A stretch of DNA of 64,000 nucleotides, from the sequence record NC_028847.1; one strand, written 5' to 3'. Shown here one piece after another: positions 43,819 through 58,094 of this stretch. The stretch comes from Escherichia phage QL01. The translations under genes and the position numbers were made by a program. The notes under the pieces are model-generated. The model was not told where the DNA came from, did not search any database, and saw nothing but the letters and a program-made list of their open reading frames with translations. Position 1 is the stretch's first letter. Each line of letters begins with the position of its first letter.

Positions 43819-44766
43819 TTAATAAAAATCAGCTACTGTAGCGGTTAGTTTAGACAAACCCGATTTAACGAAATAAGGATAAACTTTAGATTTCGAAGGT
43901 TTGTTATACGTATTATATCTTTCAGTAATTAAAGCAACAATATCATCCGGAATAAAGTCCATATCAATTAAGATTTGGTTTTCACAGAAACGTTCATATT
44001 GTTCTTCAGTAAGAAGTGTTTTAATTATATCATGGTCATAATAATTAAGAGCAATTGCTTCAAGTTCCTTGGCACGAGTGCTAGGAGTACGCTCGCCTTC
44101 AACCATGGTCAACCAATAATCACCACGAACTTTAATACTCGCGACGTTATCTTTACGGTCACCTTTAACAACCTTAGTCACGCAATCAAGCAATGCATCA
44201 CCAGATTTTGTTTTGACGAATTTTTTCTGCATTGGGGACCATTGTTTTACACCAGGGAATTTATGAAGTTGGGTAAAGTCACCATCAGAAGAACCAATCA
44301 TAACAGGGTGGCCTAAAGCCGTAAGGATTCGGGTTAAAACAGCAATATGGTCGTCAGCTTCGATTGTATCGATATTCATAACAATATAAGGCATGTTTTG
44401 TTCCAGTTCATCAACAATAATATGCATTGCTGTGAATAAACCTTCCCAATCAAATGGTGATTCGTCACGAGCCTTAGCACGGTTTTTCTTATAATAAGAA
44501 GAATAACGACGACGCCAATAACCTGATTTGGAGTTATCAACACAAATAATTAATTGGTTGTAACCTTGTTTACGGAAGTCTTTAATGTTTTTCTTAATTG
44601 AATTCAACACGAGGTGTCGAAGCATTGCGGTAGTTACTTTAGGAAATCCAGCATTCTCACCAAACTCTTGGAAAGCCGCAGCCATAATGATTTGGCTGAA
44701 ATCTAGGAGTAAAAATCCATCTTTTTGTTGGTCTTCTTCAGGAAGTAAAAAATCTAAATCGTTCAT
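43819..44766 (-). CDS. rnh: RNase H (5'-3' flap exonuclease)
   Basis: 315 aa; matches recalled T4 RNase H (WSPM.KK.VK.KSG, DDHIAVL). Confidence 0.9.
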   Translation of the reverse strand: MNDLDFLLPEEDQQKDGFLLLDFSQIIMAAAFQEFGENAGFPKVTTAMLRHLVLNSIKKNIKDFRKQGYNQLIICVDNSKSGYWRRRYSSYYKKNRAKARDESPFDWEGLFTAMHIIVDELEQNMPYIVMNIDTIEADDHIAVLTRILTALGHPVMIGSSDGDFTQLHKFPGVKQWSPMQKKFVKTKSGDALLDCVTKVVKGDRKDNVASIKVRGDYWLTMVEGERTPSTRAKELEAIALNYYDHDIIKTLLTEEQYERFCENQILIDMDFIPDDIVALITERYNTYNKPSKSKVYPYFVKSGLSKLTATVADFY

Positions 44767-44873: not shown

Positions 44874-47800
44874 ATGGCCGATATTTTAAAACCTGCCTTC
44901 CGTGCTACATCCGGACTCGATGCTGCAGGCGAGAAAGTTATCAATGTTGCCAAAGCCGATTACAATGTATTAGACGACGGCGTCAACGTTGAATTCTTTA
45001 TAGATGAGAACACCATCCAGGCGTACGACGAGACGCGCGGATATAAGAAAGGGTTTGCCGTAATCCATGACCAACGTATCTGGGTTGCTCAACGTGATAT
45101 CAATGCTCCAGCAGGAACCTTTGTACCTGGTTATTGGACTGCTACCCGTACTGACCCTAAATGGATTACCGTAGCATCTCCTACACGCCAGCTGGCTTCC
45201 GGTGAATATATTGCTGTGGATTCTGCTGCTAGCTTTACTACATTTACCCTGCCTCCGAACCCTACTGATGGTGATACCATCGTAATCAAGGATATTGGTG
45301 GCCGTGTAGGTTATAATGAAATTAAGCTCCAGTCTAGTTCTGCTCCAGGTGGTGGTAATCAGAAAATTGTCCGTTTCGGTAACCAGTTCACTGAGACCTT
45401 AATTACGAAGCCTTTTTCCTATAATATGATTATCTTTGCCAACCGTTTATGGCATTTCTGGGAAGCAGCTAATGAAGAACGTGGTATTCGTGTAGAACCG
45501 AACACCGCCCAGTTCCAATCACAAGCGGGTGATAACGTTTTACGTCGTTATACTTCAGGTGCAGTAATTAAGTTTACTCTTCCTAAGTATGCGAACCAAG
45601 GTGATATTATTAAAACCGTTGATATCGATGGTTTAGGAAGTAAATTCCACTTAATCGTTGAAACATTTGATGCGTCATCTTCATTAGGTAAGCCTGGCCA
45701 GCATAGCATGGAATTCCGTACTTCAGGTGATGGATTCTTTGTTTATAACTCTACCGAAAAATTATGGTATGTTTGGGACGGCGACCGACAAACTCGTTTA
45801 CGTGTAATTCGTGACGATGTTGAACTCTTGGCTAACGAAAGTGTTATTGTTTTTGGTCCTAATAACACGACACCCCAGACAATTAATATCACATTACCTA
45901 CCGGTGTGGCCCAGGGTGATGTCGTTAAGATTGCTCTGAACTATCTCCGTAAAGCTCAGACAGTAAATATTAAGGCTGCCGTAGGAGATAAGATTGCTTC
46001 ATCCGTCCAGTTGCTTCAATTCCCTAAACGTTCAGAATATCCACCAGAAACCGAATGGGTATTGAATGACGTACTGACCTTTAATGGCAATATAAGTTAT
46101 ACTCCGGTTATTGAACTGAGTTATATCGAAGACACCACTACAGGTGGCAAATATTGGGTTGTTGCCCAGAACGTTCCTACTATAGAACGTGTGGATTCTA
46201 AAGATGATTTAACTCGTGCTCGTTTAGGTGTTATTGCCCTTGCGTCCCAGACTCAAGCAAACGTTGACCATGAAAATAATCCTGAAAAAGAACTTGCAAT
46301 TACTCCACAGACTTTAGCTAATCGTGTAGCGACTGAATCTCGTCGTGGTATTGCTCGTATTGCTACTACTGCTCAGGTGAACCAGGACACAACCTTCGCA
46401 TTCCAGGACGATTTGATTATTTCTCCTAAGAAATTAAACGAACGTACTGCAACCGAAACCCGCCGTGGTGTTGCTGAAATTGCTACGCAAGTTGAAACTG
46501 ATGCTGGTATAGATGATACTACAATCATCACTCCTAAGAAGCTACAAGCGCGCCAGGGTTCGGAAAGTCTTTCAGGTATTGTAACATATACCTCTACTGT
46601 AGGAACCACTCCTGCGACTGCTAGGGACACCGTAGGTACTAACGTTTATAATAATAACGTAGGCAATTTGGTTATTTCTCCTAAAGCTCTTGACCAGTAT
46701 AAAGCTACCCAAGTTCAACAGGGTACGGTATATCTTTCTAACCAATCTGAAGTTAACGCAGGCCAATCGGCAAGTGGATTTGCCAACAGTGCTGTTTCTC
46801 CGGAAACATTACATGCTCGTGTGGCTCTTGATACTCGTACAGGGTTAATTGAAATTGCTACGCAACAGGAAACTGATACTGGAACAGATTATACTCGTGC
46901 GGTAACGCCTAAGACGTTAAATGATAGGAAAGCTACGGAAGGATTGACTGGTATTGCTAGAATTGCAACACAGGTAGAATTTGATGCAGGTACGTTAGAT
47001 AATGTTATTTCAACTCCGTTGAAAATTAAAACAAGATTTAATGATACTGCTAGAACTTCTGTCTCAGCAGCCAGTGGTTTGGTTGAATCAGGAACCTTAT
47101 GGAACCATTATACACTAGATATTAGAGAAGCAAATGAGACACAACGTGGTACTGCTCGCCTGGCAACCCAGACCGAAGTCAACGTTGGTACTGATGACAA
47201 AACCATCATCACTCCTTTGAAATTACACTCTAAAAAATCTACTGAAAGTTCTGAAGGTATTATTCGTGTTGCAACCAATACCGAAACAACCGCAGGAACT
47301 TCTAAAGTTTTGGCTGTAAGCCCTTCTGGTTTAAAATATGTAGTACAGACCGAAACTACTTGGGAAGCTACTGCACTTCGTCGTGGATTTGTTAAATTAA
47401 CCGAAGGTGCTTTAACCCATTCAGGAAATAAAGTTACTGGTTCTGGTGTTAAATTCAACTCAGGTACAGGCCTTTATGAGAACGATGATACTGTTCTGAA
47501 CGCAGCGAACTATCCTAAAACGGGTTATGCGGTTTCATCTTACGAGATGAATAAAACTTTACAGAACTTTTTACCTATAAATGCTACGGCTGTGAACTCC
47601 GAGAAATTGGATGGCCTAGATTCACTCCAGTTCATTCGTAGAGACGTCGATCAAACGGTTAATGGTTCTTTAACCCTGACCAAACAATTGAACCTGGCAG
47701 CTCCTCTAGTGTCTTCTAGTACTGCTAATATTACCGGCAATACTATTTTAGGTTCTCTGGAAGTAACCGGAAATTCTACTTTTAAAAATGATGTATCTGT

Positions 47801-48926
47801 TAGCTCAGGTAAATCTATTAAATTTGTAGGACCCCAGTCTGGCGCAGGTTCTTGGGATTCTCAGGCAACTAATTTTGCACCTATTTTCTCTGAGATAAAT
47901 TCTACTGTTGATGCTAGTTATCACCCTATTGTTAAGCAACGATTAGGGCAGGGTACTTTCTCTTTAGGTACTTTAAATGACGGTTCCGGCGATTTTAAAA
48001 TCCATCATATTAGCAGTGCTTCTGGTGCTTTAAAATCTTCCTACTGGACCTTTAATACGACCGGTGATTTTGCTGTTAATAGTGGTTCTATTAGTATTTC
48101 TAAGAATGCTAATATCACAGGTATAACCACTTCTAACGGTGTTTCTACAACCACACTAAATGCTTCTGCTCTGTCTTCGTTGCAAAACGTAACTACTTCA
48201 GGTACTATCGTTTCCACCGGACAGGTATCGGCAAATAATGGTTTGGTTGCTCAAAAATACGTCCGTTCTGTTGGTGTTAAACCTACATTAGCATCCCAGG
48301 CCCCTACTGCAGAAACAGTTGGCTTCTGGTCTGTTGATATCAATGATTCGGCCACATTTAACCTGTTCCCTGGTTATTGGACGATGAAAACGAAACGCCA
48401 GGTTAATATCGATACGGTCCAAACTAAACCTGCCGGTGTTTCTGATGAGATATGGAATGCTTCTGGTTGGTTGACAGAAACAGGTGCATTTAGTTCTCCG
48501 GCTATTCGTTATCGTAACGAAGACGGTAGTTTTGGTGACGAAGTTCTCGGTACGTCAGGTCAGAAATTACGTGGTACTTGGTTTGATTATTCTGTTCGTG
48601 ATAAGGAAGTTAAATATCCTGGTACGTTAACCCAGTTTGGTAATACATTGGATTCATGTTATCAGGATTGGGTGTGCTATCCTACAGGACTGAATGGTGG
48701 TACTATTCGTTATACACGTACCTGGCAGAAAAATAAAAACGCATGGACTACGTTCTCTATGGTCTATACGGCAGATAACCCTCCTTCTGCGGAAGAGGTT
48801 GGTGCATTGCCTGCTGATAACGCCACAATGGGTAACATTACAATCCTTGATTGGTTACGTATTGGTAACGTTCGTATTATTCCTGACCCGGTCACTAAAT
48901 CCGTTAAGTTTGAGTGGATTGAATAA
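44874..48926 (+). CDS. 34: Long tail fibre proximal subunit gp34
   Basis: 1350 aa; internal repeats (RRG.A.IAT....). Confidence 0.9.
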   Translation: MADILKPAFRATSGLDAAGEKVINVAKADYNVLDDGVNVEFFIDENTIQAYDETRGYKKGFAVIHDQRIWVAQRDINAPAGTFVPGYWTATRTDPKWITVASPTRQLASGEYIAVDSAASFTTFTLPPNPTDGDTIVIKDIGGRVGYNEIKLQSSSAPGGGNQKIVRFGNQFTETLITKPFSYNMIIFANRLWHFWEAANEERGIRVEPNTAQFQSQAGDNVLRRYTSGAVIKFTLPKYANQGDIIKTVDIDGLGSKFHLIVETFDASSSLGKPGQHSMEFRTSGDGFFVYNSTEKLWYVWDGDRQTRLRVIRDDVELLANESVIVFGPNNTTPQTINITLPTGVAQGDVVKIALNYLRKAQTVNIKAAVGDKIASSVQLLQFPKRSEYPPETEWVLNDVLTFNGNISYTPVIELSYIEDTTTGGKYWVVAQNVPTIERVDSKDDLTRARLGVIALASQTQANVDHENNPEKELAITPQTLANRVATESRRGIARIATTAQVNQDTTFAFQDDLIISPKKLNERTATETRRGVAEIATQVETDAGIDDTTIITPKKLQARQGSESLSGIVTYTSTVGTTPATARDTVGTNVYNNNVGNLVISPKALDQYKATQVQQGTVYLSNQSEVNAGQSASGFANSAVSPETLHARVALDTRTGLIEIATQQETDTGTDYTRAVTPKTLNDRKATEGLTGIARIATQVEFDAGTLDNVISTPLKIKTRFNDTARTSVSAASGLVESGTLWNHYTLDIREANETQRGTARLATQTEVNVGTDDKTIITPLKLHSKKSTESSEGIIRVATNTETTAGTSKVLAVSPSGLKYVVQTETTWEATALRRGFVKLTEGALTHSGNKVTGSGVKFNSGTGLYENDDTVLNAANYPKTGYAVSSYEMNKTLQNFLPINATAVNSEKLDGLDSLQFIRRDVDQTVNGSLTLTKQLNLAAPLVSSSTANITGNTILGSLEVTGNSTFKNDVSVSSGKSIKFVGPQSGAGSWDSQATNFAPIFSEINSTVDASYHPIVKQRLGQGTFSLGTLNDGSGDFKIHHISSASGALKSSYWTFNTTGDFAVNSGSISISKNANITGITTSNGVSTTTLNASALSSLQNVTTSGTIVSTGQVSANNGLVAQKYVRSVGVKPTLASQAPTAETVGFWSVDINDSATFNLFPGYWTMKTKRQVNIDTVQTKPAGVSDEIWNASGWLTETGAFSSPAIRYRNEDGSFGDEVLGTSGQKLRGTWFDYSVRDKEVKYPGTLTQFGNTLDSCYQDWVCYPTGLNGGTIRYTRTWQKNKNAWTTFSMVYTADNPPSAEEVGALPADNATMGNITILDWLRIGNVRIIPDPVTKSVKFEWIE

Positions 48927-48934
48927 GAGGTATT

Positions 48935-50056
48935 ATGGAAAGATTTATGGCAGAATTTGGACAAGGATATGTCCAGGTTCCTACATTATCTGAAAACAAT
49001 GCTGTAAGGTATAAACTTAGTATAGCGGGTAGTTGTACTAAGTCTACCACAAAAGCATATGTTAAATTTCAAGATGGGAACTTCGGTTCCCAGAATTTTC
49101 AAAATGGATTAAACCTTATAGAAATCGATGTTAGTGCTGAACCCAAAATAGTGGCTAACAAAACTTATAGTTTTACAAAAGATTTTGATGTTATTTCTGA
49201 AGCTTTTATAACGTATATAAATTCTATACCAGCCAATAGAATAGTTTGTTTAGTATCTTCTGGTAGATTAAATGCTTCACAAAAACTTATCGATTGGTTC
49301 CATGCAGCAGGAAGTACCGCATTTCCATCTAAATGGCTAATAGACCGCTTCGAGCCGTCTTATTCAGCATTTTATGTTTCAGGAAGGAATGCTATAGTAA
49401 TGGAACATGTGCTTTATAATGATGGGGTATTGGTCGAAGATGTTTCTACTCCATTGGAAGTGGTATTTGACGATATCAGTGATGTTGGCGGTACAGGATA
49501 TCCTGTCAGAATTGTTGAAGATGAAAACACTTATCTAAGCAATGAGGGAGATGAAATTAAGCGATTTCCTACAGAATCTCCTACCGCCCCATTAACAGAT
49601 TATAATATGAAACCAGGTGAATTCTTTTATCTTAAGTTTCAATTAATGTGCGACCAAGCTTTAAAAGATGTCGGGACTTCTCAGATGTCTGTTAGATTTT
49701 TTAACGCCTCAGGTGCTTTAACTGGGACAGTTAATATGGACGTTCCTTCCAACGTTCCTGCCGGTGCATGGATGACATTTGAACGGGTAGTAATGGTTCC
49801 TGAAGGTACTACAGACTTTACCCTTTATGCCAGAAAAACAGCTTCGGCTGGCCAAGGCGGAGTTCGAAATGTTATGTTCGGTGAGATATCTGAATCAGAA
49901 CCTCAGCCAAAACCTGCTGAATTTGGTGTTAACGGTATTCGTATGAACTTTGGTACGGAAACTAAAAATATGGGTACTACCATAGCCCAGCTATATGATA
50001 AAACAGGCACTAAACCTGGTCAGGTTTGGGTCGCTGAATTTAGAGAAAAATATTAA
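48935..50056 (+). CDS. 35: Long tail fibre hinge gp35
   Basis: 373 aa; MERFMAEFGQGYVQ... matches recalled T4 gp35. Confidence 0.9.
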   Translation: MERFMAEFGQGYVQVPTLSENNAVRYKLSIAGSCTKSTTKAYVKFQDGNFGSQNFQNGLNLIEIDVSAEPKIVANKTYSFTKDFDVISEAFITYINSIPANRIVCLVSSGRLNASQKLIDWFHAAGSTAFPSKWLIDRFEPSYSAFYVSGRNAIVMEHVLYNDGVLVEDVSTPLEVVFDDISDVGGTGYPVRIVEDENTYLSNEGDEIKRFPTESPTAPLTDYNMKPGEFFYLKFQLMCDQALKDVGTSQMSVRFFNASGALTGTVNMDVPSNVPAGAWMTFERVVMVPEGTTDFTLYARKTASAGQGGVRNVMFGEISESEPQPKPAEFGVNGIRMNFGTETKNMGTTIAQLYDKTGTKPGQVWVAEFREKY

Positions 50057-50787: not shown

Positions 50788-53700
50788 ATGGCTACTTTAA
50801 AGCAAATCCAATTTAAAAGAAGTAAAGTAGCCGGTGTACGTCCGGCACCGGCCCAGTTGGCTGAAGGCGAACTGGCTATTAACTTAAAGGACCGTTTACT
50901 TTTTACTAAAGACGATACTGGAGCGATTATCGACCTTGGCTTTGCTAAAGGCGGTAATATCGACGGAAACGTTATTCATAACGGTAACTACACTCAAACC
51001 GGTAATTATAATCTGTCTGGTACTTTTACCCAAACAGGTAGTTATACGACATCCGGAAGTATAACAGCAAATGGTGATATTACTGCAAAATCTCGCCTAA
51101 TGACGGATATGGGCGAAGTTTTGGTACGTGGCAATGGTACCGCACATGTTCGATTCCAGGATTTAGCTGATGCGCGCGAAAGAGCTATAATTTATTCTCA
51201 AAACCGTACTGGGGATACCAAGCAAATCTTGAACGTTCGTGTTCAGGATTACACTAATTCGACATCTAATATTTTTGCATTCAACGGCGACGGTTTATTT
51301 TATGCTCCGTCTATTTCCGCCGGAACATCAGTAAAATCTCCGGTAATTTATACTAATACTGTTAATACAGACAGTAAGAATATTGGCGATTATGATATAT
51401 CTTCATTAGCAAATAATAATTCTGCCACGGATAAAAACTATTTGCGCGTTGTACGTACCGACCCAGCGTCTGCAATACTTCATGAAATTTGTGAAAATAA
51501 CGGTATCAGTTGGTATTCTGGTTCAACCCCTACTGATTATATGTTGTCTTTTGCTTATTCCGGTGGTTTTCAAGCAGGTCATTCGATTGCAGTAGGTATG
51601 GAATCAGGGCCTTTGACATATTCAACCTTAGGTAAAGGTTCTATTGTTCTTGGTGATAATGATACCGGGTTTAAATGGAAACAAGACGGCCTGTTCTATA
51701 CAATTAATAATGGAGCTTATACTTTACTTACAACTCCAACTGAAGTTACAAGCCTTAAACAGTTAGTTGCGGGTTATTCAACCAACGGTTCTGATTTAAT
51801 TCTTCCTACAACTCAAAACTATCCATTAGTTATTGTTAATACTACTAATGATAAAAACAGCTTCGGCGACGGTCAAACTCTTTTAGGTTATCACCAGAGC
51901 GGCAAATATCACCATTATTTTCGTGGCAAAGGTGTAACAAACGTTAACACCGCCGGCGGGTTGTTGGTTACTCCTGGTAACGTTGAAGTCCGGGGCGGTT
52001 CGGTTAATATTGATGGTCTCAGTAATGCTTCTACAGTGCTTTTTAAAGGAAATACTACAGGATATAGTTCAGTCGATAATATAGAGCTCAAAGTTTGGGG
52101 TGACACTTTTAATACGGTAGGTGGTTCTCGTAAAAACGTAATGGAAACATCTGATGCTACTGGCTGGATGCATTATATTCAACGAACTACAGAAGGTAAA
52201 GTCGAATCCTATTTAAATGGTACCATGAATGTAATTGAAGGATTGACTGTCAATCAAGATACATCCTTAAAACGTAATCTGTATGTTTCCAATGAAATTA
52301 AAGTTCGCGCTGCTAGTGGTCTTCGTATTTGGAACGATAAGTATGGTGTTATTTTTCGAAATTCGGAAGACCAACTGCATATTATTCCGACCAATGCCAA
52401 TGCCGGCGAAAGTGGTGGATTGGGCCCATTACGACCGTTAAGTATTACATTAGACACCGGCATAGTTAAAATTCCTAACTTAGCAGCCAACCAGGTTTCT
52501 TTTAGTAGCACAGGTGTATTGGAATTCATCGCCGGTAACGGTTCATCTTATGCTAACCAGAACACAACTAAAGCTCCATTGTATCAAACGCTTGGTTCTG
52601 CGACTCAAGCATTCTATCCTATTACTAAGCAGAAAAATACAGTTTCTAACGTAACTGTTACTCAAGGTATGGACCGAGCTACGAGCGAATACCGAATTGT
52701 TGCTCAAGGTGATTTGCTTGGTGATGGTGATGCTACAGGATTGCAATACTGGCGATTTACCAAAGAAGGTAACTTTATAACTCGGAACCGCTTATATGCC
52801 GGTACAGCTTTCATGAATACCGATGGTAATATTGCAGGTTCTATTTGGAACAAGTATAGCGGTGCTACTAACCTTGATGCTGCAGTGAATACTCGTGTTG
52901 GTAAAGGCGGCGATACAATGACTGGCAAATTAATCGTTAAAAGAGGCTCTGACGCTATTAACATTGCTGCCGATGAAAATGATTCTGCTTATTTACTTGG
53001 AACATCGGGTGGAGCGAATTCGTGGTACATCGGTAAAGGCGGAGCAGATGACACTGCTTCATTTTATAATTTCAAAACTACCGCAGGAATTACTCTTAAT
53101 AGTGTAGGCGATATTGATTTTAATGTTAAAAAACAATCTACTGCAGCTTCATTAAATTTTTATCGTTTATATTTAAACGGAAGACAGTGGACAGCTACTC
53201 AAGGCCACGGATATAATAATCAATGGCAAACAGAAGCCCCATTCTTCGTTGACTTTGGTGAATCTGTTCCGAAAGATAGTTATATGCCAATTATCAAAGG
53301 AAAAAGCCAAATCATTAACGAAGGATATGCCACAAAGGCAGATTTTGGTATTATTAGATTGGGCGGAGATGCTACTTGGGGAAATGCAGTAATTCGTGTT
53401 GGTTCTGCGGAAAGTGGAGATAGCAGTCATCCTAATGCAATATTTGTGTTTCAGGCTAATGGCGATTTTAAAGCTCCGGCTGGTCTTCGCGCTGGTGTTA
53501 ACTTGGGTGTCGGTACAATTCCAGCATGGGGCGGAGCATCTATCGCCATTGGGGACGATGACACCGGCTTGGTCCATGGCGGTGACGGCCGAATTAATAT
53601 GTATGCCAATAGTATGCATATTGCAAGCTGGGGAGCTGGTTACCATATCCATGAAGGTCTTTGGGATACCACTGGTGCCTTGTGGACTGAAACAGGAAGA

Positions 53701-54111
53701 GCTATTATTTCTTTTGGTCATTTAGTCCAACAAAACGATAGCTATTCAACATTTGTTCGTGACGTTTATGTTCGTTCTGATATTCGTGTTAAAAAAGACC
53801 TTGTTAAATTTGAAAATGCTTCACAGACACTTTCAAAAATTAACGGTTACACTTATATGCAGAAACGTGGCCTGGATGAAGAAGGTAATCAGAAATGGGA
53901 ACCTAATGCCGGTTTAATTGCTCAAGAAGTTCAAGCTATTTTACCTGAATTGGTTGAAGGCGACCCTGACGGTGAAGCTTTACTTCGTTTAAACTATAAC
54001 GGTGTAATTGGTTTAAATACAGCTGCAATCAATGAGCACACTGCAGAAATAGCAGAATTGAAATCAGAGATTGAAGAACTTAAAGCACTAATTAAATCAT
54101 TGTTAAAATAA
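50788..54111 (+). CDS. 37: Long tail fibre distal subunit gp37
   Basis: 1107 aa; C-terminal coiled-coil-like tail ...[18 protein letters not shown]. Confidence 0.9.
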
Positions 54112-54142
54112 TAAGAGGGGCTTAGGCCCCTTGGAGGTTTAT

Positions 54143-54940
54143 ATGGCAGTTGAAGGACCGTGGGTTGGATGGTCTGCAGTAGTTAATACCGGGCAAAACT
54201 GGATGGGCGGCGCCGCTCAACGATTGAGAATGGGTATTCCGTTTTGGATGAGTAATATGAACGGTCGGTCTGTTGAAGTAATTCACACAATAACAGCAAA
54301 CCATAACTTTAATGGCCAGTGGTTCCGCGACCGCTGTTTTGAAGCAGGCAGCGCACCTATTGTGTTTAATATCACAGGCGATATAGTATCTTACGACCGT
54401 AATGTTCCATTGTTCTTTATGAATGCCGACACACCTAATGAATATGTCAATTTGACTATTCATGGAGGCGTGCATATGTGGGGCCGAGGCGGCCACGGTG
54501 GGTGGACCCATTCAGGTGGCGACGGTAACGGTCAATGGGGTGGTGATTGTATAGTCAACCATATAGGTCATAGACTACGTATTTGGAACTATGGGGTTAT
54601 CTGTGGCGGTGGCGGTGGCGGTGGTGGCATTGCGTATCGTCCTCACTCAGGTGCTAACTGGCAAGATATCGGTGGTGGTGGTGGACGTCCATTTGGTCCT
54701 GGTGGCGGTGGTGGATACTCCGGTGGTGGTGCTTCTTATGAAAGCCCTGGCGGTGGATACGATTATGGTAATGCCCACTCAGGTCGTGGCGGTGATGCTG
54801 GCGGCGCTGGCGGCAACGCATGGAATGATGGTGGTAAAGTTCTTAAAGTTGGGGCTGGAGGCGGTTCTGGGGCTGCTGTTGCCGTTTCTGCTCCTGCATG
54901 GGGCGCGACAGGTACGATTTACGGTCCTTGGCTTAGTTAA
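54143..54940 (+). CDS. 38: T2-type gp38 receptor-recognising adhesin
   Basis: Start at ATG after GGAGG SD (track ORF begins at TTG); [20 protein letters not shown]...[27 protein letters not shown] matches recalled T2 gp38; poly-glycine motifs separate variable segments. Confidence 0.8.
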
Positions 54941-57461: not shown

Positions 57462-58094
57462 TCAGATTGCGTTGGTTACGGTTTTGATAACTTCAGATGA
57501 TACGTTTTGGAAGTCGATATAAGTATTCTTACCACCAGTCTTAATCTTAACATCAAGATTCAAGGAAGTAAACACTTGTTTTTCTTTATCAGTCATATTA
57601 TAACCGAAGATACGCATCATTCCATCACGACGGACTTCGATTTGACGAATACCGTTGGTACGTTTAGCGAATCGAACTTCAAGGTTGCTACGGTTTTCAG
57701 CAATTTCACGAATCTCGATACGGTCTTCTAATAAAGCTTTAACTTCATCAGCCAGTGTTACCATTTCAGGAGTAACACCACGTGAACTACGCGTTTTACG
57801 TTTTTCCAACATCTCTGGAGCATTTTCAGAAGCGAACAAGTCAGCAGCTTTTTGAACTAGGTCCATTGCTTCACCTGTAGCCACTAGTCCGTCACCAGAT
57901 TTTTCGATGAATCCTTTCTTAATTAATACACCGATATTAGAGTTAACTACCGCAGCACTAAATTGCTCACTCAGGGCTTCACGGACTTCGCCTGAAGTGA
58001 TGAAGTTATGCTTGATGATATGTACTAAGATCGAAGCCGTTTTTTCATTCAGGGCGTCTTCAGAAGCTTTGATGATATAAGTAATTTTAGACAT
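57462..58094 (-). CDS. motA: MotA middle-transcription activator
   Basis: 210 aa (T4 MotA is 211 aa); MSKITYIIKAS...VNSNIGVLIKKGF.EKSGDGL matches recalled T4 MotA. Confidence 0.9.
   Translation of the reverse strand: MSKITYIIKASEDALNEKTASILVHIIKHNFITSGEVREALSEQFSAAVVNSNIGVLIKKGFIEKSGDGLVATGEAMDLVQKAADLFASENAPEMLEKRKTRSSRGVTPEMVTLADEVKALLEDRIEIREIAENRSNLEVRFAKRTNGIRQIEVRRDGMMRIFGYNMTDKEKQVFTSLNLDVKIKTGGKNTYIDFQNVSSEVIKTVTNAI

Follow-up and report, generated by a model that had tools for sequence, protein, structure and literature searches.

The gene for the proximal subunit of the long tail fibre of Escherichia phage QL01 raises a question about its central part: does the short motif that recurs there mark a repeated structural unit of the fibre shaft, or does it reflect composition, duplication of the DNA, ligand binding or a function of the DNA itself? 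The window, that is, the whole stretch of DNA analysed, comprises 64,000 nt of the phage genome (NC_028847.1), and the gene occupies the following position in it.

44874..48926, plus strand: gene 34, long tail fibre proximal subunit, 1350 aa (open reading frame list and translation, homology)

Full-length homology and synteny bear out the gp34 label given in the preliminary description. From end to end the gene shares 99.4% nucleotide identity with the 'long tail fiber proximal subunit' gene of vB_EcoM_IME540, and DNA identity with Dhakavirus Bp7 is 94.8%. Its product is a homologue of the PDB gp34 chains 9x3r, 5nxh and 4uxe; phmmer aligned it to chain 9x3r_M ('Long-tail fiber proximal subunit') with E=0 over query aa 5-1174 and 1236-1350, phrog_972 matched it with E=0 across aa 3-1350, and Pfam Gp34_2nd was matched at the C-terminus. 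RNase H Pfam domains (43819-44766, minus strand) precede gene 34, and open reading frames of 373, 215 and 1107 aa and then the gp38 adhesin (PF05268) lie 3' of it. The resulting order, rnh on the opposite strand followed by 34-35-36-37-38, is identical in T4.

Ten repeat units in the central part of gp34

A motif of the form T(E/D)...RG(I/V)A.IAT(Q/T)(V/T)E had been reported to recur at least six times between 46300 and 47320, a span corresponding to gp34 aa 476-816. As written, the motif has no more than one or two complete matches (aa 487-501 and 527-541); under a slightly relaxed pattern it does recur, in six clear units starting at aa 484, 524, 649, 685, 751 and 787. The scarcity of complete matches, and the richness of the region in T, A, G and E, would fit a recurrence arising by chance or from the composition of a T-, A-, G- and S-rich fibre sequence. 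Shuffle controls refuted this reading, to which we assign a negligible probability. In a self dot-plot (BLOSUM62, 15-residue windows, the maximum of 20 shuffles as limit), 110 windows exceeded the shuffle maximum, all of them within aa 474-809, and scores reached 56 against a shuffle maximum of 38. The core pattern G-h-h-x-h-[AST]-[TSNE]-x-x-[EQG] was observed 8 times against 0.03 expected, and the pattern h-h-[ST]-P-x-x-[LI] 8 times against 0.11 (5000 shuffles). When each of the six units was scored against an HMM profile built from the other five, it obtained 31-61 bits, whereas the best domain among 300 shuffled gp34 sequences reached 5.6 bits.

Profile-profile comparison (hhalign, with ten Straboviridae orthologues) extended the array to ten units over aa 447-900, nt 46212-47573. 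The repeat region had thus been located correctly but its extent underestimated, as the array begins ~90 nt before 46300 and stops ~250 nt after 47320; likewise the six units seen earlier stand within a larger number that includes the degenerate or loop-expanded units r1, r4, r5 and r10. All ten matched the repeat profile with P=92-99.5% and E<=5e-7, whereas four control segments from gp34 itself failed to match it (P<0.3%), which again speaks against chance. Orthologue profiles were needed for this result, as the single-sequence HMM of six units misses r4 and is borderline for r5. A six-frame HMM scan of the window placed the units in gene 34 alone. The array, with its one interruption, reads as follows.

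46212..46322, plus strand: r1, aa 447-483, degenerate, TRARLGVIALASQTQ...AITPQTL; HMM 10.8 bits, above all 300 shuffles; hhalign P=93%, E=2.6e-7
46323..46442, plus strand: r2, aa 484-523, loop 4 residues longer; leave-one-out 39 bits; hhalign E=2e-17; T4 aa 476-515
46443..46550, plus strand: r3, aa 524-559, the most canonical unit, TETRRGVAEIATQVE...IITPKKL; leave-one-out 61 bits; hhalign E=1.5e-22
46551..46700, plus strand: r4, aa 560-609, degenerate, expanded loop; single-sequence HMM not significant; hhalign P=95%, E=3.9e-8; T4 aa 552-601
46701..46817, plus strand: r5, aa 610-648, degenerate, QGTVYLSNQSE...AVSPETL; HMM 5.7 bits, borderline; hhalign P=97.6%, E=2.8e-12
46818..46925, plus strand: r6, aa 649-684; leave-one-out 39 bits; hhalign E=1e-20
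46926..47033, plus strand: r7, aa 685-720; leave-one-out 46 bits; hhalign E=7e-20
47034..47123, plus strand: non-repeat spacer of 30 residues, aa 721-750; hhalign P=0.2%, like the four control segments
47124..47231, plus strand: r8, aa 751-786; leave-one-out 53 bits; hhalign E=1e-18; T4 aa 743-778
47232..47339, plus strand: r9, aa 787-822; leave-one-out 31 bits; hhalign E=5e-15; T4 aa 779-814
47340..47573, plus strand: r10, aa 823-900, long loop insertion; hhalign P=92%, E=5e-7; T4 aa 815-876

A Gly at consensus position 9 is aligned in 10/10 units of the window, and an S/T-P pair at consensus positions 43-44, the helix N-cap, is present in nine of them; in r10 of QL01 the cap reads S-S, and not S-P as in T4.

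Conservation of the array and the structure of the shaft

Repeats in gp34 are already known; Cerritelli et al. 1996 and van Raaij et al. 2001 are cited for those in the T4 sequence. Crystal structures cover three T4 units, which form a trimeric, mixed alpha/beta fibrous domain; the T4-type unit spans ~33-47 residues in tandem and has two conserved features, a Gly at consensus position 9, which starts a beta-strand, and an S/T-P pair at 43-44 (Granell et al. 2017, PMC5537660). The QL01 units map one-to-one on those of T4 gp34; from r1 to r9 the alignment is free of indels, and identity per unit is 58-92% (r1, 84% to T4 aa 439-475; r3, 92% to T4 aa 516-551). Units r8, r9 and r10 are the orthologues of the crystallised T4 repeats 744-776, 780-812 and 823-868, and r4 has as its T4 counterpart the 'additional repeat 552-598', which structure-based alignment had revealed to Granell et al. 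(PMC5537660). The solved T4 gp34 chains 9x3r, 5nxh and 5nxf align across the repeat region in phmmer, the alignment of 5nxh_A beginning at query aa 734. In r10 the loop exceeds its T4 equivalent by 16 residues, 858-869 and 876-879 being found only in the window sequence; the T4 loop that matches this insertion forms a 2-nm beta-hairpin (PMC5537660).

T4 gp34 (PDB 5NXH/5NXF; full-length chain 9X3R) thus resembles QL01 gp34 in the protein itself, in the position of the array and in the number of units, and the two share the Gly and S/T-P signature, the loop-expanded fourth and tenth units and a spacer preceding the eighth. They differ in the C-terminal part, where QL01 has 74 extra residues overall, including a 46-residue insertion. 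Identity to T4 outside the array is 54% in the N-terminal part and 41% in the C-terminal part, compared with 58-92% per unit; therefore, the repeat region is the best conserved part of gp34. Unit order and spacing are conserved in 8/9 other Straboviridae gp34 proteins examined, namely those of T4 and of Yersinia, Serratia, Shewanella, Klebsiella, Aeromonas, Acinetobacter and Providencia phages, with KVP40 as the exception.

Repeats of this kind might instead stem from recent tandem duplication of the DNA, or form a recombination-prone array that varies fibre length. Weak in-frame echoes in the gene (families of 17-47 nt with 60-86% identity, at spacings that are multiples of 3) and the range of one to nine units across other fibre families would agree with such an origin, but the sequence of the array makes it highly improbable. 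Tandem Repeats Finder detected no tandem array in gene 34, only two trivial duplications of 10-11 nt. Mean identity between units is 47% in nucleotides and 31% in amino acids, with 39% at third positions and a longest common exact word of 16 nt. Each unit has more amino acids in common with its T4 orthologue (58-92% identity) than with the other units of the array (58% at most), and the number, order and spacer are constant in all but one of the nine other gp34 proteins. In the absence of a DNA tandem repeat we conclude that the repetition is ancient and kept at the protein level; copy numbers of 1-9 among fibre families indicate that the number has changed over deep evolutionary time.

The one-to-one T4 orthology and the T4 crystallography (PMC5537660) uphold the earlier proposal of a repeated structural unit in the proximal fibre shaft, and we confirm that the repeat observation was real and correctly interpreted. 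The region almost certainly encodes a repeat-built segment of the gp34 trimer shaft, with ten head-to-tail units of ~36 residues that arose by ancient duplication and are constrained at the protein level. Taking the three-dimensional fold from the orthologous T4 units (Granell et al. 2017, PMC5537660), each unit would open with a tight turn toward the three-fold axis, and the invariant Gly would bend the chain by 90 degrees into a short outward beta-strand (G-I/V-A-x-I-A-T), to be followed by a short helix (Q-x-E), a loop of variable length and a short strand. The (S/T)-P N-cap would then start the last short helix (P-x-x-L), which together with its two symmetry mates would form a three-helix bundle on the fibre axis. 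Loop insertions lengthen some units to 50 or 78 residues. A stack of ten such trimeric beads would make a thin and rigid rod, stable to heat and proteases, with the N-terminal part of gp34 (aa 1-446) on one side and a C-terminal triple beta-helix with P3-P5 domains on the other. The N-terminal part of T4 gp34 attaches to the baseplate. Constraint acts on the protein fold and not on the DNA, and the number and order of units left by the ancient duplication have been fixed since before the divergence of Tevenvirinae-like Straboviridae.

Units r1-r7 are likely to share the fold of the crystallised r8-r10, and the dimensions given in PMC5537660 suggest a rise of roughly 2.5-3 nm per unit. An AF2 monomer model made from a shallow alignment was of low confidence (mean pLDDT 48.7, pTM 0.17); even in this weak model, strand-helix-loop-strand-helix elements fall at equal positions in nine of the ten units. 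Because the model is poor, profile similarity and the T4 literature are the grounds for regarding the degenerate units r1, r4 and r5 as structurally equivalent.

The units could also be ligand-binding modules, for carbohydrate or for docking to sheath or whiskers, rather than purely architectural spacers. The loops of the fourth T4 repeat and of repeat 823-868 may touch the tail sheath when the fibre is retracted (Granell et al., PMC5537660), and the r4 and r10 loops, the latter with its 16 additional residues in QL01, are the most variable parts of the array. The conserved positions, however, are those of the core (Gly turn, buried strand, S/T-P cap and axial-helix Leu), as expected of a scaffold; according to PMC5537660, gp34 occupies the end of the fibre nearest the phage and the receptor is bound at the gp37 end; and QL01 also encodes a gp38 adhesin. 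We consider ligand-binding modules improbable; at most, the r4 and r10 loops would have a secondary function of this kind.

The spacer and an overlapping homologue of the oriG promoter

The 30 residues between r7 and r8 are not accounted for by the repeat model. They are 80% identical to T4 aa 713-742, the gap between units falls at an equal position in the eight orthologues that share the QL01 layout (all those compared except KVP40), and the low-confidence AF2 monomer model predicts a beta-hairpin here.

Inside the repeat region, the strand opposite to gene 34 carries a sequence homologous to the T4 oriG promoter. Origins of the T4 oriF/oriG type use a MotA-dependent middle-mode promoter with a MotA box at -30 and a sigma70-type -10 element (PMC3016281). 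The annotated T4 oriG falls within gene 34 and corresponds to nt ~47036 of the window; the relevant features in QL01 are these.

46995..47044: most AT-rich 50 nt of gene 34, 78% AT, ~55-105 nt downstream of the predicted start
47107..47132, minus strand: candidate MotA-box promoter, TTTGCTTCT-N12-TATAAT, homologous to the T4 sequence upstream of annotated oriG
57462..58094, minus strand: motA gene

The pattern of MotA box and -10 element on the minus strand is conserved, the last base of the box being T in QL01 and A in T4. Synonymous-site conservation at the promoter showed a modest excess in comparison with T4 (0.73 vs 0.52) and none in comparison with three other phages. An antisense open reading frame within gene 34 (47108-47458, minus strand) was taken as a probable artefact of open reading frame listing.

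The mapped position of T4 oriG, the minus-strand promoter and the AT-rich stretch just downstream of it raise the idea that the DNA itself, or an antisense transcript, has a function that causes the periodic conservation, in place of a structural repeat of the protein. The element is confined to one site, some 100-150 nt at the junction of r7, spacer and r8, and a ten-fold periodicity of 36 codons is beyond its reach. Furthermore, the units resemble one another at the amino-acid level, with their codons scrambled, and gp12 and many unrelated fibre genes contain this protein repeat as well. As a cause of the periodicity the oriG-like element is inadequate, and we give it hardly any credence; it remains as a separate, overlapping feature of the gene that encodes the repeat-built shaft.

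There is a slim chance that the spacer (aa 721-750) and the start of r8 are under dual constraint, from the protein and from a putative replication origin, if the latter is active in the Dhakavirus-like QL01. Such a constraint could help to explain the fixed place of the spacer in the Tevenvirinae. Since the origin is already known from T4, only its link to the repeat architecture would be new.

The repeat unit in gp12 and other fibres

The fibrous repeat domain also occurs in the short tail fibre gp12, and Granell et al. superposed gp12 182-215 on the gp34 repeats (2017, PMC5537660). Consistent with this, the gp12 PDB chains 5iv5_O, 9f4b_FG and 5lye_A matched the gp34 repeat region in phmmer (E=9e-12 to 1e-9), and phrog_910 ('tail collar fiber protein') matched it in 5 stretches. 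The N-terminal shaft of T4-type gp12 (PDB 5IV5 chain O, 9F4B; phrog_910) thus carries the gp34 repeat unit, but gp12 differs from gp34 in having fewer units and its own N- and C-terminal domains (PF14928, PF09089 and a collar domain). The window does not encode gp12, as the six-frame HMM scan places units in gene 34 only.

In a fibre-homologue search with the array, the matches listed were mostly shorter, non-orthologous fibres and not full-length gp34. Units are present, 1-9 per protein, in at least 114 further fibre proteins, where successive units most often start 35-36 residues apart; P0041 (a gp12 homologue) and P0050, which are short or straight tail fibres, have 5 units each. Phage and prophage fibres with a PF12571 tail-collar N-terminus, a PF21882 gp53-like domain or a PF07484 collar share the tandem unit of ~36 residues in one to nine copies, and differ from gp34 in their unrelated terminal domains and varying copy number. 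The module is also found in phrog_15547, 4849, 35342, 30320, 17623 and 8443. Many module-bearing fibres from Endozoicomonas, Aeromonas and Azospirillum are probably prophage or tailocin fibres, since they are encoded in bacterial genomes. To judge from these sequence matches, the repeat is not specific to gp34 and is common to gp12 and many other tail fibres.

Pfam and NCBIfam include generic 'phage tail fibre repeat' families among their curated repeat models. No curated repeat family in Pfam scored above its gathering threshold when hmmscan was run at E<=10 on full-length gp34, on the array and on three pieces of two units each; the repeats gave only sub-threshold edge matches to PF09089 gp12-short_mid (17-20 bits against a cut-off of 25), and no NCBIfam repeat model was found for the gp34 array. 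Automated annotation therefore misses this widespread module of ~36 residues. The repeats mark the rod segment of the proximal half-fibre and have little importance beyond correct annotation; the exact unit boundaries in QL01 would be of use in modelling and in fibre engineering, as junctions for domain swaps or changes of length.

Gene 34 and its neighborhood

The repeats lie within one reading frame, which contains the whole region singled out in a preliminary description of this DNA:

44874-48926, plus strand: gene 34 ORF, 1350 aa

The preliminary description had called this ORF gp34, and homology and gene order bore this out. Its DNA is 99.4% identical, over its full length, to the vB_EcoM_IME540 'long tail fiber proximal subunit' gene, and 94-97% identical to gene 34 of phages WG01 and Bp7, the latter classified in Straboviridae, Tevenvirinae, genus Dhakavirus. 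Against the PDB, the protein matched a full-length T4 gp34 chain (9x3r_M, E=0), a second gp34 chain (9f4a) and crystallised T4 fragments (5nxh, 5nxf, 4uxe). The T4 gene arrangement is kept, with RNase H upstream on the opposite strand; downstream come gp35, which contains an ILEI-like domain, then gp36, gp37 and a gp38 adhesin of the T2 type. Because homology to gp34, in DNA and PDB chains, is joined by a T4 arrangement of neighbors, we regard the identity as secure.

The Pfam ILEI (interleukin-like EMT inducer) match of gp35 (48935-50056) is barely above threshold, in line with a 2026 preprint that reported an ILEI/PANDER-like domain in the T4 knee-cap. The product of gene 37 (50788-54111) carries a C-terminal Peptidase_S74 intramolecular-chaperone domain and an internal Gp34_trimer-like domain. 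Directly after it, gp38 (54131-54940) is a T2-type adhesin with poly-glycine motifs; its TTG start in the ORF listing is probably four codons too early, because an ATG at 54143 matches the start of Pfam Gp38_N.

Significance and extent of the gp34 repeat

A motif of the form T(E/D)...RG(I/V)A.IAT(Q/T)(V/T)E had been described as recurring at least six times across 46300-47320 (gp34 aa 476-816). Taken literally it matches fully only at aa 487-501 and 527-541; slight relaxation yields six clear units, starting at aa 484, 524, 649, 685, 751 and 787, and it is in this form that the count of six stands. Significance was assessed by three independent tests. In 5000 composition-preserving shuffles, 0.03 occurrences of the core pattern and 0.11 of an (I/V)(T/S)P..L pattern were expected, against 8 observed for each. 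The self dot-plot proposed in the preliminary description (BLOSUM62, 15-residue windows) gave 110 windows exceeding the maximum of 20 shuffles, all confined to aa 474-809, at offsets that include 36, 40, 66, 102, 125, 161 and 201. Repeat detection, the other check proposed there, found significant periodicity in the protein: in a leave-one-out HMM analysis each of the six units scored 31-61 bits with a profile of the other five, whereas the best domain among 300 shuffled gp34 copies reached 5.6 bits with the repeat HMM. These shuffle controls exclude chance or a compositional effect as the source of the recurrence. A six-frame scan of the whole 64-kb window with the repeat HMM detected no units outside gene 34.

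Nine other Straboviridae gp34 sequences, from T4 and from Yersinia, Serratia, Shewanella, Klebsiella, Aeromonas, Vibrio (KVP40), Acinetobacter and Providencia phages, were aligned with that of the window. The alignment was sliced at unit boundaries, and each slice was compared by hhalign against a profile built from the strong units minus the one being tested. All ten unit slices matched, with hhalign probabilities of 92-99.5%.

Repeat units of gp34 (residues, strand and hhalign E-value)
r1: aa 447-483, plus strand, E=2.6e-7
r2: aa 484-523, plus strand, E=2e-17
r3: aa 524-559, plus strand, E=1.5e-22
r4: aa 560-609, plus strand, E=3.9e-8
r5: aa 610-648, plus strand, E=2.8e-12
r6: aa 649-684, plus strand, E=1e-20
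r7: aa 685-720, plus strand, E=7e-20
r8: aa 751-786, plus strand, E=1e-18
r9: aa 787-822, plus strand, E=5e-15
r10: aa 823-900, plus strand, E=5e-7

No profile match was found for aa 721-750 or for four control gp34 slices (hhalign probability <0.3%). Because all ten slices match and the spacer and controls do not, the array is, by profile comparison, one of ten units with one spacer, at aa 447-900 (nt 46212-47573); the interval first described lies within it, and the array extends past both ends. The unit consensus is r-x-A-T-e-x-r-x-G-x-x-x-x-A-t-q-x-e-t-x-x-G-t ... a-i-t-P-x-x-L, with the Gly in 10/10 units and S/T-P in 9/10. The conserved 30-residue spacer (aa 721-750, 47034-47123) interrupts the array at one and the same position in every Tevenvirinae-like gp34 compared, and is predicted by a low-confidence AlphaFold2 model to form a beta-hairpin.

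Protein-level repetition and a candidate oriG homologue

Tandem Repeats Finder reported no tandem array in gene 34. In codon alignments between units, mean identity was 31% for amino acids, 47% for nucleotides and 39% at third positions; the longest exact word common to two units is 16 nt, and the short DNA repeat families found in the gene echo, in frame, the peptide that is conserved. Each unit is nearer its T4 orthologue (58-92% amino acid identity) than any sister unit (at most 58%), and r1 to r9 align with T4 without indels. The layout, spacer included, matches in 8 of the 9 other orthologues, KVP40 being the exception in its spacing. Low nucleotide identity and fixed orthologous layout exclude both recent duplication at the DNA level and a cassette for varying fibre length. 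On these comparisons, the repeat is one of protein without a DNA repeat, its duplications ancient and its array fixed. Against T4 it is the best conserved part of gp34, the N-terminal and C-terminal parts being 54% and 41% identical.

The KVP40 gp34 (sequence L007, 40-3810) carries the repeat with a unit spacing and layout unlike those of Tevenvirinae-like orthologues, which suggests that the array was rearranged in Schizotequatrovirus.

The oriG (ori34) annotation of the T4 record lies within gene 34 and corresponds to nt ~47036 of the window, inside the spacer. The corresponding feature is:

46995-47134, minus strand: candidate oriG homologue at the r7/spacer/r8 junction, with a MotA-box/TATAAT pattern and an AT-rich stretch

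The minus strand retains TTTGCTTCT-N12-TATAAT, ending at 47107 (promoter-like site 47107-47132). The site is homologous to the MotA-box and -10 promoter of T4 oriG, in a 26-nt block of perfect identity, although the last base of the MotA box differs. The window contains 4 matches to TGCTTY-N12-14-TATAAT (0.18 expected), and QL01 encodes motA (57462-58094, minus strand). Downstream of the promoter-like site lie the most AT-rich 50 nt of gene 34 (46995-47044, 78% AT). By definition, oriF and oriG combine a middle-mode promoter with an A+T-rich unwinding element (PMC3016281); the window's pattern would fit this definition as a putative origin. Synonymous-site conservation here rises modestly in the T4 comparison, with no such rise in the comparisons with three other phages. 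A DNA-level function is excluded as the source of the periodicity, being unable to yield a ten-fold, 36-codon period with scrambled codons.

Structural counterparts, distribution and proposed role

These repeats are already known, having been described and partly crystallised for gp34 and gp12. T4 gp34 'contains repeating sequences' (PMC5537660, citing Cerritelli et al. 1996 and van Raaij et al. 2001); crystallography resolved three, at 744-776, 780-812 and 823-868, and an additional one was recognised at 552-598 (PMC5537660). Onto these r8, r9, r10 and r4, respectively, map exactly, and the conserved window residues are those named structural in that work, which upholds the earlier description of a repeated structural unit in the proximal fibre shaft. 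The T4 unit opens by turning tightly towards the three-fold axis, and a conserved Gly then bends the chain by 90 degrees into a beta-strand that runs outward. Next come a short helix, a loop that varies in length and is not conserved, and a short strand; an S/T-P-capped helix ends the unit in a three-helix bundle on the axis (PMC5537660). An AlphaFold2 monomer model of aa 447-900 places strand-helix-loop-strand-helix at the same positions in 9 of 10 units at low confidence (pLDDT 48.7, pTM 0.17), as expected when the native form is an intertwined trimer.

The window protein differs from T4 gp34 in several places. The variable loop of r10 is 16 residues longer (aa 858-869 and 876-879; 47445-47480 and 47499-47510), its T4 equivalent being a 2-nm hairpin proposed to touch the tail sheath (PMC5537660), and the S-P helix cap is S-S in r10. 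An insertion of ~56 residues near the C-terminus (aa 1176-1221 and 1227-1236; 48399-48581) lies directly ahead of aa 1237-1298, where Pfam Gp34_2nd matches best, and the C-terminal third, only 41% identical, has several other indels.

The repeat is common to gp34 and the short tail fibre gp12 (PMC5537660), and gp12 PDB chains matched the array (E=9e-12 to 1e-8). Besides phrog_972 (gp34), seven PHROG families of tail or unknown function matched, phrog_910 ('tail collar fiber protein') in 5 stretches. In a large protein collection, at least 114 cluster representatives carry 1-9 units, whose starts are most often 35-36 residues apart. Terminal domains combined with the repeat are diverse (PF12571, PF21882, PF07484, PF14928, PF09089), and some of the fibres, encoded in Endozoicomonas, Aeromonas and Azospirillum genomes, would be prophage or tailocin-like. 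No Pfam or NCBIfam model scored above threshold for the repeat, the only sub-threshold matches being edge matches to PF09089; a widespread repeat of ~36 residues without a matching model marks a gap in these curated libraries.

That the units are ligand-binding modules is possible for the variable loops only; the role of the array is most likely purely architectural. Stacked on one another, ten trimeric beads would form the thin rod of the proximal half-fibre, with the N-terminal part of gp34 on one side and the C-terminal triple beta-helix and its P3-P5 domains on the other. T4 residues 744-1289 are just over 30 nm long, 18 nm of it beta-helix (PMC5537660); from these dimensions we estimate ~2.5-3 nm per unit and ~25-30 nm for the array. 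The longer loops of r4 and r10 may serve secondarily in docking, since Granell et al. suggested that their T4 counterparts could contact the sheath while the fibres are in the retracted state (PMC5537660).
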